NCBI GenBank assembly: GCA_052389555.1
Contig: JBQTHV010000109.1
Span: 3,262 to 67,261 of the forward strand
Length of the DNA stretch: 64,000 bases
Source of the DNA: Gemmatimonadales bacterium
GTDB lineage: Bacteria; Gemmatimonadota; Gemmatimonadetes; Gemmatimonadales; GWC2-71-9
Direction of reading: 5' to 3'
Part shown: piece by piece, positions 27,043-29,312 of the stretch
How the letters are laid out: each line of letters begins with the position of its first letter
How positions within the stretch are numbered: position 1 is the first letter of the stretch
Program-made: the position numbers and the translations under genes
Notes under the pieces: generated by a model
Told to the model about the DNA's origin: nothing
Seen by the model: only the letters and a program-made list of their open reading frames with translations
Databases searched by the model: none

Positions 27043-29312
27043 GCTTGTCGCCGGTTCAGGACGTTATGCAAGCGAGCAGCGAGCGCCTTGGCTCGGAACG
27101 GCTTGGTGAGAAAATCGTCGGCCCCGAGCTCGAGCACCCGCACTTCGTTGTCCTCGTCGCCCTTCGCGGTGAGCACGATCACCGGCAGCTGCCGGGTGGC
27201 GGGCCGGGACCGCAAGTGGGAGAGCACGGCATAGCCGTCCAACCCCGGCAGGTTGAGATCCAGGATCACGATGTCGGGGGCGTGCCGGTCCACTTCGTCG
27301 AGCGCCTCCGCGCCGTCGCGGGCCTCGACCACGGTAAAGCCCTGGCGCTGGAGCAGGTCGCGCATAACCCGCCGGAGCTGGTCCTCGTCGTCCACCAGGA
27401 GCACCATCGCCCCCTGGCGGGTCACCTCGGTCTGGACTGGCGGCAGCTCATCGGCGAGCTCAAACGTCGGCGTGAATTCGAGTACCGGTGCGGCCCGTGG
27501 CTCGGCACTCGGCCCTCGGCGCTCGGCAACAGCCCGGGAGTCGGGAGTCGAGAGTCGAGAGTCGAGAGCTTGCGGGCTCGTCCCGATTCCCGATTCCCGA
27601 TTCTCGATTCCCGAACCATCCAGCCGTCCTTCCTCGCGCGGCGGTTCGGTCACCCGGAGCAGCTCGTCGATCGACGTCTCGCCGGTGAGCACGTGGCGTA
27701 ACCCGCTGTCGAAGAGGCTCTCCATGCCCTCGGCGCGCGCCGCCGCCGCGATCCGGTCAGCCGTCGCCCCGCGGCCAATCATCCGCTCGAGCTCCGGGTT
27801 CATGACCAGGATCTCGAGGATCGCAAACCGGCCCCGGTATCCCGTCTGCGCGCACTCGGGGCAGCCGACCGCCTGATACAGCTGGGCGCCCGCCGGCAGG
27901 TGCTGCCTAACCCGATCTGGCAACCCCTCGGTCTGCGGCACCTTGCAGTGGCTGCAGAGCCGCCGGAGCAGCCGCTGGGCGATGATCCCGCGCAAGGCGG
28001 CGCCGACCTTGTACCCTTCCAGCCCGATGTCGACCAGACGGGTTACCGTATTGGGCGCGTCGTTGGTATGCAGCGTCGAGAGAACCAGATGCCCGGTGAG
28101 GGAGGCCTGGATCGCGATCTGCGCGGTCTCCAGGTCCCGAATCTCGCCCACCAGCACCACGTCGGGGTCCTGCCGCAGGATCGAGCGGAGGGCCGTGGCG
28201 AATGTGAGCCCCGCCTTCTCGTGCACCTGCACCTGCACGACGTTGGATCCCAGCCGGTACTCCACCGGGTCCTCCACCGTCACGATGTTCACCCCTTCGC
28301 CCTGGATCTGCCGGAGCGCCGCGTAGAGCGTGGTGGTCTTCCCCGAGCCGGTTGGTCCGGTCACCAGGAGAATCCCTTCCTTGTGATTCAGCAACTCGCC
28401 CACCGTGTTCCGCTCTTCCAGCAGAAAGCCCAGCGCGTCGAGCGCGAGAATGGTGACCTTGGTGTTGAGAATCCGGATGACCGCCTTCTCGCCGAGCGAG
28501 GCGGGCAGCGTCGAGACTCGCAGATCCACCGGGTTGCCATTGACCGCTACCCGGCAGCGGCCGTCCTGCGGACGGAGCCGGTCCGCGATATCCATTCCCG
28601 ACATGATCTTGATGCGGGAGACGAGCGGAATTCCCGCCGAGCGCGGGATCTTCATCACCTGGCGTAACACGCCGTCGATCCGGTAGCGGACGATGACGCC
28701 GCCCTCCGACGGCTCAATGTGAATGTCACTCGCCCGGCAGGTAACCCCGTCCGCGATCAGCGTATCCACCAGCTTGATGATCGGACGGGCCTGGGCCTCC
28801 TCCGCGCTGGCCCGGTATTGCTCCGGCTCGTCGGTGAGTTGGGTGACTTCGGCGTCTTCCGCGAGCCCGGTGAGGAGCTTGGAGACCACGTCGTCGGGGC
28901 GATACAGCTCATCGAGCTTTTCGCGAATCCGGTACGGCGAGAGCAGCAAGAGCCGCACTTCCCGGCCGGTCGCGAAGGCGAGCATCTTCTCCGCATCAAT
29001 GTCGAACGGATTCGAGGTGGCGACTTCGAGATACGAATCGGTGGTGCGGATCGGGAGAACCTGGTACTTGCGGGCCACCTGTTCCGGAACCGTCTCGAGC
29101 ACCTGCGCTTCGAACATCCCGAGATCGGCGACCGGCATCCGGAACCGGGCCGACACCGCCTGCAATACCTGATCGTCAGTCAGCAACCGGCGCTCGACCA
29201 CTGCTTCCCACAACGAGCTGCCCGGTCCTGCGTCACGCCGCATCGACGCGAGCTGGGCCTCAGGAACCAGGCTGGCAACGGTCGGAAAGAGCCACTCGTC
29301 GGTGAAGGGCAT
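27039..29312 (-). CDS. GspE/PilB-family secretion ATPase fused to a C-terminal response-regulator receiver domain
   Basis: ASDIHIEP, GPTGSGKTTTLY, TVEDPVEY, LRQDPDVVLVGEIRD, STLHTN, CxxC..CxxC. Then LLVDDE..ILDLNLPGLDG..LTAK..DFLTKPF. Confidence 0.92.
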   Translation of the reverse strand: MPFTDEWLFPTVASLVPEAQLASMRRDAGPGSSLWEAVVERRLLTDDQVLQAVSARFRMPVADLGMFEAQVLETVPEQVARKYQVLPIRTTDSYLEVATSNPFDIDAEKMLAFATGREVRLLLLSPYRIREKLDELYRPDDVVSKLLTGLAEDAEVTQLTDEPEQYRASAEEAQARPIIKLVDTLIADGVTCRASDIHIEPSEGGVIVRYRIDGVLRQVMKIPRSAGIPLVSRIKIMSGMDIADRLRPQDGRCRVAVNGNPVDLRVSTLPASLGEKAVIRILNTKVTILALDALGFLLEERNTVGELLNHKEGILLVTGPTGSGKTTTLYAALRQIQGEGVNIVTVEDPVEYRLGSNVVQVQVHEKAGLTFATALRSILRQDPDVVLVGEIRDLETAQIAIQASLTGHLVLSTLHTNDAPNTVTRLVDIGLEGYKVGAALRGIIAQRLLRRLCSHCKVPQTEGLPDRVRQHLPAGAQLYQAVGCPECAQTGYRGRFAILEILVMNPELERMIGRGATADRIAAAARAEGMESLFDSGLRHVLTGETSIDELLRVTEPPREEGRLDGSGIENRESGIGTSPQALDSRLSTPDSRAVAERRGPSAEPRAAPVLEFTPTFELADELPPVQTEVTRQGAMVLLVDDEDQLRRVMRDLLQRQGFTVVEARDGAEALDEVDRHAPDIVILDLNLPGLDGYAVLSHLRSRPATRQLPVIVLTAKGDEDNEVRVLELGADDFLTKPFRAKALAARLHNVLNRRQA
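27501..27614. repeat. In-CDS arrays: CTCGGCN x4 plus inverted GRGAGTC / CYCGATT element
   Basis: Encodes GIENRESGIGTSPQALDSRLSTPDSRAVAERRGPSAEP in the GspE-REC linker. Confidence 0.9.

Follow-up and report, generated by a model that had tools for sequence, protein, structure and literature searches.

Background

How can a conserved protein come to contain tandem DNA repeats, translated in frame, between two of its domains, and do such repeats serve it? This question is raised by three arrays of heptanucleotides at positions 27501-27614 of a 64,000-nucleotide (nt) stretch of DNA from a Gemmatimonadales bacterium (contig JBQTHV010000109.1, positions 3,262 to 67,261 of the forward strand), further called the window. 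The arrays lie within a gene of the minus strand, which encodes a fusion of a GspE/PilB-family ATPase with a receiver (REC) domain, here called ATPase-REC. A sequence-only reading of this DNA had taken them for a complete inverted repeat inserted in the manner of Rickettsia palindromic elements (RPEs), for a source of new protein sequence and for a possible phase-variable switch. The explanation which we find probable is a different one: the repeats are a tolerated passenger that rewrote a disordered linker, as a local case of a fast-evolving repeat class present genome-wide.

The gene and its repeat element

The features of the gene and of the element are given below in positions of the window or in amino acids (aa) of the protein; the rows on the plus strand are the arrays as reported by Tandem Repeats Finder.

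27039..29312, minus strand: open reading frame (ORF) of 757 aa, GspE/PilB family, fusion of MshEN, T2SSE ATPase and receiver domains
aa 57-141, minus strand: MshEN domain (Pfam)
27654..28799, minus strand: T2SSE ATPase domain, aa 172-553 (Pfam PF00437, E 1.5e-129)
27405..27650, minus strand: inter-domain linker, ~aa 555-636, hypervariable in sequence and length among homologues
27069..27404, minus strand: receiver (REC, Response_reg) domain, aa 637-748 (Pfam PF00072, E 7.7e-34)
27581..27614, minus strand: 5' arm of the hairpin on the mRNA, (GGGAATC/GAGAATC) x4.9, which is CYCGATT on the plus strand; translated GIENRESGIG
27569..27580, minus strand: hairpin loop and spacer, whose sequence has no relation to that of the loops in the genome's other GGGARTC hairpins
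27535..27568, minus strand: 3' arm of the hairpin on the mRNA, (GACTCYC) x4.4-4.7, which is GRGAGTC on the plus strand; translated LDSRLSTPDSR
27501..27528, minus strand: unpaired array on the mRNA, (GCCGAGN) x4, which is CTCGGCN on the plus strand; translated AVAERRGPSAE
27501-27528, plus strand: CTCGGCA x4.0, 85% matches
27538-27568, plus strand: GAGTCGA x4.4, 95% matches
27581-27614, plus strand: TCCCGAT x4.9, 92% matches

The ORF was placed in the GspE/PilB family by NCBIfam, with scores under both equivalog cut-offs. A match to it was found in 31 of 31 related genomes and in 80 further species, and all of the best 120 homologue matches contain both domains. The possibility that the fusion represents two genes or an assembly artefact was ruled out by the continuous frame and by conservation throughout the order, in more than 100 Gemmatimonadales homologues; an independent Logan contig (5,340 nt) also matches 701 nt with 0 differences. 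Presence of three 7-nt arrays inside the ORF was confirmed by Tandem Repeats Finder, and the frame is kept through them, as had been claimed, into a full Response_reg domain, which is intact and strongly conserved in homologue alignments.

The 114 nt of the element are codon-aligned and correspond to nt 1699-1812 of the gene, coding for aa 567-604, SGIENRESGIGTSPQALDSRLSTPDSRAVAERRGPSAE; the peptide given in the sequence-only reading consists of the same residues but is shifted by one residue against these positions. On the mRNA strand the order of elements is (GGGAATC)n, loop, (GACTCYC)n and (GCCGAGN)4. Two of the arrays do pair and fold, so the inverted repeat is real, but its arms, located 20 nt apart, are only 77-81% complementary and do not deserve the name of a complete one, and the CTCGGCN array has no inverted partner here. 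Each unit of the paired arms holds one G.T opposition on the plus strand or A.C opposition on the mRNA strand. Free energy of the fold is -45.3 kcal/mol for the mRNA (z -3.7 vs shuffles) and -51.1 kcal/mol for the antisense strand (z -5.2 vs shuffles), and the 5' arm on the mRNA contains four G3 tracts separated by loops of 11, 4 and 4 nt. In the GRGAGTC arm the variant units neighbour each other (GGG, GGG, GAG, GAG, GAG) with no compensation in the opposite arm, which fits local slippage and not selection for pairing. Tryptic peptides predicted from the repeat-encoded segment are ESGIGTSPQALDSR and LSTPDSR. Within the whole window 36 period-7 arrays were detected (at least 3.5 copies, score at least 40), and 0 in each of 20 first-order Markov simulations.

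The linker among homologues

The flanks of the linker are conserved (…LLRVTEPPRED and APxLExSPAFELLDDLPP…), while its core varies in both sequence and length. Measured from TEPP to [AT]FEL in 90 homologues, the linker has 29-79 aa with a median of 60; that of the query has 57 aa and ranks 34th of 90. Among 12 congeners it spans 165-228 nt, the query having 198 nt. Since the query linker is of median length, there was no net insertion. The repeats fill about 38 of the about 49 variable residues, in place of the acidic/basic DDDDDR-RRPRRP motif of the relatives, and by these alignments they replaced the variable core without adding length. The proposal that the arrays are a source of protein sequence holds to this extent, as they do supply most of the variable residues, but not in the sense of an added segment. 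Alignment with homologues was the check that the sequence-only reading itself had suggested for an insert, and the repeat-free homologues were found to carry an equivalent linker.

The arrays are specific to the lineage of the query. None was detected in the linker of any of the 12 congener orthologues, nor in that of the closest relative (locus L013, protein 83% identical). We considered whether the linker of L013 could hold remnants of the element; a decayed array was rejected because 122 of 2000 shuffles attain the lag-7 autocorrelation of this linker, which thus lacks significance, and a decayed hairpin because the fold has a z of only -1.1. The linker of another congener folds with z +0.5. 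At the position of the query GCCGAGN x4 array L013 has a single GGGCCGAGTG, which faintly suggests that the array grew from a seed. The search for heptamer arrays in linkers of other species returned, among the 80 species representatives, only weak periodicities and low complexity of Pro/Ala type (L031 and L100) and, in the linker of L082, one weak CCGCCGAG x4.

In composition the segment resembles a DNA repeat and lacks the marks of coding sequence. Autocorrelation of the query linker equals 0.51 at lag 7 and 0.21 at lag 3, compared with 0.33-0.41 at lag 3 for orthologous linkers. GC content at codon positions 1/2/3 is 0.68/0.68/0.65 in the repeat and 0.70/0.43/0.86 in the rest of the gene, the third-position value in orthologous linkers being 0.75-0.91.

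In three congener metagenome-assembled genomes (MAGs) the orthologous gene is divided between two contigs that end within the linker (G007:C54/C333, G010:C278/C96 and G012:C554/C248; loci L014-L019). Repeats were rejected as the cause of these breaks, as the contig ends show ordinary variable linker and no arrays. The overlapping ends differ in a strain-like manner, e.g. GEAPPGGVGVIPEPPA vs EAPPGGGGVITAPPV. Strain heterogeneity is the likely reason, and the breaks suggest that the linker is hypervariable within populations.

Genome-wide distribution of the arrays

The genome of the query (G000) is a Gemmatimonadales MAG of 3.2 Mb, 67% GC, 202 contigs and 93.5% completeness. Tandem Repeats Finder, run on the whole genome with a threshold of at least 3 copies, reported 871 arrays of 7-nt, 316 of 8-nt and 111 of 9-nt units. 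They form 215-242 inverted pairs belonging to about 43 unit families. The GGGARTC family alone accounts for at least 21 arrays, whose arms mix A and G variants; at 12 GGGARTC loci the loops resemble one another in neither sequence nor length. The modal array size is 4 copies (150 of 305 intergenic and 47 of 106 in-ORF period-7 arrays), a peak somewhat exaggerated by the detection threshold, which undercounts 3-copy arrays.

Genes were predicted by a crude codon-usage caller that takes the longest ORFs and yields 2,469 genes and 85% coding density. With these calls, 203 of 874 arrays and 27 of 242 inverted pairs (about 10%) lie deep inside predicted ORFs, whereas 110 of the pairs are intergenic and 93 are located at gene edges. 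Pfam domains on both sides of in-frame arrays were found in the DnaE-type polymerase III alpha subunit, MutL, TrpE, SucA and GcvP; in MutL the array stands between DNA_mis_repair and MutL_C, and in GcvP between its two halves. The dnaE and mutL arrays are located at C129:34965-35182 and C15:61250-61339 of the genome. These five proteins share the repeat-encoded peptides RESGIG(S/T)RESG, DSRLPTPDSR and AERRAPSAERR. The recurrence follows from the structure of the repeats, as an inverted tandem array is alike on both strands and passes through all three frames per 21 nt, so the same 7-aa periodic peptides appear again and again. GCCGAGN is the commonest in-ORF unit family of the genome, and AERRAPS-type peptides occur in 41 predicted genes.

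Units free of stop codons on both strands make up 88% of deep in-ORF arrays and 33% of intergenic ones, compared with 74% of random 7-mers of the same composition. This difference in stop content is a visible selection filter.

Origin and persistence of the element

Our favoured explanation can be laid out as follows. The class to which the element belongs consists of runs in which a unit of 7-8 nt stands about 4 times, and two such runs often pair to a tandem-armed hairpin. After the split from the closest sampled relative, such arrays would have taken over the unconstrained core of a pre-existing disordered linker and left its length unchanged. They would persist there for three reasons: the linker tolerates nearly any sequence, the GGGARTC and GCCGAGN units are free of stops in every frame on both strands, and the net length does not shift the frame of the receiver domain. 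The peptide (…ESGIG…DSRLSTPDSR…AERRGPSAE…) would then be a by-product of the DNA repeat, acting as a flexible tether only. We infer a neutral or nearly neutral element which formed at its present site, by slippage from short seeds and/or by copying from other arrays, rather than by transposition.

Several observations weigh against this explanation. The hairpin is far more stable than its shuffles (both z values given above, -3.7 and -5.2) and the arrays favour about 4 units; either the stability or the four-unit preference could mean a function or a dedicated mechanism instead of neutral drift. The single length of the arrays is known from assembled contigs, which drop rare unit-number variants. 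The census of coding and non-coding arrays rests on the crude gene caller, which overcounts arrays near 5' ends, and five in-ORF cases only were verified by domains. Homology of the single seed with L013 depends on a short and weak alignment. As to the disorder, an AlphaFold model shows aa 555-635 without secondary structure and a predicted local distance difference test score (pLDDT) below 50 over aa 561-633. As the quality of the whole model is low (mean pLDDT 54), it contributes little on this point and, being weakly informative, was set aside as proof.

A more active origin, in which a template-directed process writes tandem-armed hairpins over unconstrained DNA and thereby makes linker peptides and, in this gene, a contingency site, seems to us improbable. 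If it were true, the process would take its units from a common pool in the genome, keep overwriting intergenic spacers and disordered linkers with them and yield new linker peptides genome-wide, and a low-frequency contingency site at this gene could uncouple the receiver domain from the pilus/secretion ATPase.

It is equally doubtful that the element is an RPE-like or MITE-like (miniature inverted-repeat transposable element) mobile sequence, inserted in frame, with a later or simultaneous deletion in the linker that restored its length. The same unit families do occur at many loci, hairpins of similar size recur, and the lack of a coding signature in the repeat region is what is expected of foreign or newly written DNA. 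RPEs, moreover, are a precedent for in-frame palindromic inserts; they measure about 150 bp, have a family consensus over the whole length and lengthen the host protein (PMC10969869). As with RPEs, a palindromic repeat is here read in frame, its peptide falls in a part of a housekeeping-type protein where the structure tolerates it, and numerous unrelated proteins of the genome contain these same peptides. Unlike RPEs, the arms are tandem 7-mers, the loops of family members are unrelated in both sequence and length, leaving no element-wide consensus, and the linker is no longer than in the 90 homologues. Among the defining features of RPEs that were tested, we thus found a tolerant in-frame site, but neither a whole-element consensus nor an added segment, and the RPE-type insert put forward in the sequence-only reading did not survive the comparison, given the equivalent linker of repeat-free homologues and the unrelated loops. 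Y1 (RAYT/IS200-type) transposase, PF01797, which would be sought in this connection, gave 0 matches in the 93.5%-complete genome, with positive controls in 6 of 14 genomes, and the presence of about 43 unit families with one architecture fits a process better than a replicating sequence.

An action at the level of RNA, with the hairpin or a G-quadruplex of the GGGAATC arm pausing ribosomes at the boundary between the domains or serving as a processing site (e.g. of RNase III), would tune the amount of the REC-containing product. The mRNA fold is stable (the -45.3 kcal/mol and z -3.7 reported above), the element is positioned exactly between two folding units, and the sense arm has the four G3 tracts, (GGGAATC)4 being able to form a G-quadruplex in vitro (Rehm et al. 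2015, PMC4692102). However, the mRNA strand carries an A.C mismatch in every unit and the antisense strand folds better owing to G.U pairs; variants of one arm are not accompanied by a compensating change in the other; there is no U-tract. No terminator-like site was found at the element, and an intragenic terminator at the hairpin was ruled out on this ground. Nor is there a structure at this place in any of about 90 orthologues, as illustrated by the z values of L013 (-1.1) and of the other congener (+0.5). We consider an RNA element unlikely.

A phase-variable contingency locus, in which a slipped-strand change of 1-2 units toggles between ATPase-REC and ATPase-only products, is the reading in which we place least trust, and it is very improbable. 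Its premises are sound: the 7-nt unit inside the reading frame is not divisible by 3, and in simulation a 1- or 2-unit change in any of the three arrays resulted in the loss of REC, as had been foreseen, with proteins of 612-634 aa, while a 3-unit change kept the frame. Adjacent identical variant units tell that slippage has happened over evolutionary time, and switching by a 7-nt repeat within a gene is proven for neuO of E. coli K1, where AAGACTC repeats in the 5' coding region give measured ON/OFF mixtures and the gene is ON only if the repeat number is divisible by 3 (PMC13001214). As in neuO, a full-length product needs the right repeat count here. Unlike the one long perfect tract of neuO, in which repeat number ranges over 3-53 units and is most often 20, with 66% of genomes OFF (PMC13001214), our locus has three short and imperfect tracts of 4.0, 4.4 and 4.9 units (85-95% matches, with variant units inside), present in contigs in one length. 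Arrays of the same kind stand in frame in the essential genes dnaE, mutL, gcvP, sucA and trpE, where switching would harm. In contigs of the source metagenome (depth about 32) the locus has a single form, free of insertions and deletions, a weak argument, as contigs drop rare variants; a near-identical strain was not found. All full-length orthologues recovered are intact fusions, none with the repeat. For the switch idea itself no positive evidence was obtained.

Comparison with known repeat systems

The closest published kind of repeat is the G-rich heptamer repeats of Xanthomonas. Rehm et al. 2015 (PMC4692102) described GGGAATC heptamers in Xanthomonas campestris/axonopodis and GGGGA(C/T)T in Nostoc PCC 7120. 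The Xanthomonas repeats show a preference for four units, form 70-75 convergent pairs per genome, and are in 89-93% intergenic, near ORF ends, and in 7-11% intragenic (PMC4692102). The resemblance is close: the mRNA-strand arm of our element has the identical GGGAATC unit, a preference for about four units and frequent convergent stem-loop pairs are found here too, and most of the pairs are intergenic or at gene edges, with about 10% deep in ORFs and arrays abutting both the stop and the start of the present gene. Differences are the phylum, here Gemmatimonadota, and the repertoire, since instead of one dominant unit there are dozens of unrelated families, many of them not G-rich and some with 8- and 9-nt units. 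In-frame translation in protein linkers was not analysed by Rehm et al. 2015.

Repetitive extragenic palindromic sequences (REP/REPIN) are likewise abundant, short, hairpin-forming, mostly extragenic and located near gene ends. Unlike these, the present class is found in a genome with no Y1 (RAYT) transposase detected, its arms are built of many unrelated units in tandem instead of one conserved palindrome, and about 10% of its pairs are translated.

Neighbourhood of the gene and further observations

The surroundings of the ATPase-REC gene also contain arrays, which were identified by Tandem Repeats Finder.

26942..27037, no strand assigned: two intergenic arrays, GGCGGTTG x4.2 and TCCCGAC x4.7
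29318..29441, no strand assigned: intergenic hairpin AGGGGCC x4.7 / CCCTGGC x4.6

The TCCCGAC x4.7 array ends 1 nt from the stop codon of the gene (27039-27041) and the AGGGGCC/CCCTGGC hairpin begins 6 nt upstream of its start, so the gene is bracketed by arrays. In the closest relative, L013, no array is present in the homologous position of the downstream spacer. An ORF of 187 aa (26479-27042, minus strand) has a nominal GTG start overlapping the ATPase-REC stop and crosses the two stop-free arrays at 26942-27037; its homologue in the closest relative is a 150-aa NUDIX protein starting 86 nt past the stop. By this comparison, the 187-aa NUDIX ORF has probably been over-extended by the arrays. 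Stop-free arrays can falsely lengthen ORFs and are therefore an annotation hazard, of which this downstream gene is one example.

In the region 24000-32300 of the window there are about 11 arrays in about 8 kb around the gene, compared with 1 in the syntenic 8.2 kb of L013, and array density is about 0.37/kb in the whole genome vs about 0.11/kb in 80 related loci. Related lineages thus differ strongly in array load. At about 4219-4269 of L037, a locus of another Gemmatimonadota species whose orthologue is only about 68% identical, a GCCGAGC-type array was found downstream of the orthologous gene, reading SAERRAPSAERRVPSAE in one frame; it follows that the GCCGAGC family occurs in more than one species though its sites differ. 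The longest in-ORF array found is GCCGAGC x20, in frame in a 536-aa ORF of the same genome as the window (contig C47, 42751-44361, plus strand), where it encodes about 45 aa of (AERRAPS)-type repeats. That ORF would suit a test of unit-number variation better than the locus at 27501-27614.

Intergenic arrays are enriched for stop-containing units, as at positions 19603-19717, 32084-32204 and 55502-55681 of the window, and the commonest pair family, GGCTATT/CCAATAG (61 pairs), includes TAG. Such arrays may double as all-frame stop signals beside gene ends, or may merely reflect the selection filter. At 55572-55682 a unit of 57 nt is repeated 1.9 times and itself holds CCAATAG arrays, being a higher-order duplication of an array-bearing segment. 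In the intervening sequence of Coxiella 23S rRNA a variable number of tandem heptamers (GACAGAT) is placed at the 5' end processed by RNase III, adjoining the ORF of an S23p four-helix-bundle protein (PMC4990558); by analogy, tandem-armed hairpins may be linked to RNase III processing.

Conclusions

The element at 27501-27614 is real, but within a repeat class already known it is an ordinary member. As a single locus it matters little; what it shows is that DNA repeats can overwrite the whole disordered linker in a conserved ATPase-receiver fusion without doing harm. Of more interest is the class, with its hundreds of tandem-armed hairpins and dozens of unit families, which, as far as can be judged from the genomes compared, appear to turn over faster than species diverge. 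Its arrays respect reading frames and stop content, and they supply the peptides ESGIG, DSRLPTP and AERRAPS to many housekeeping proteins.

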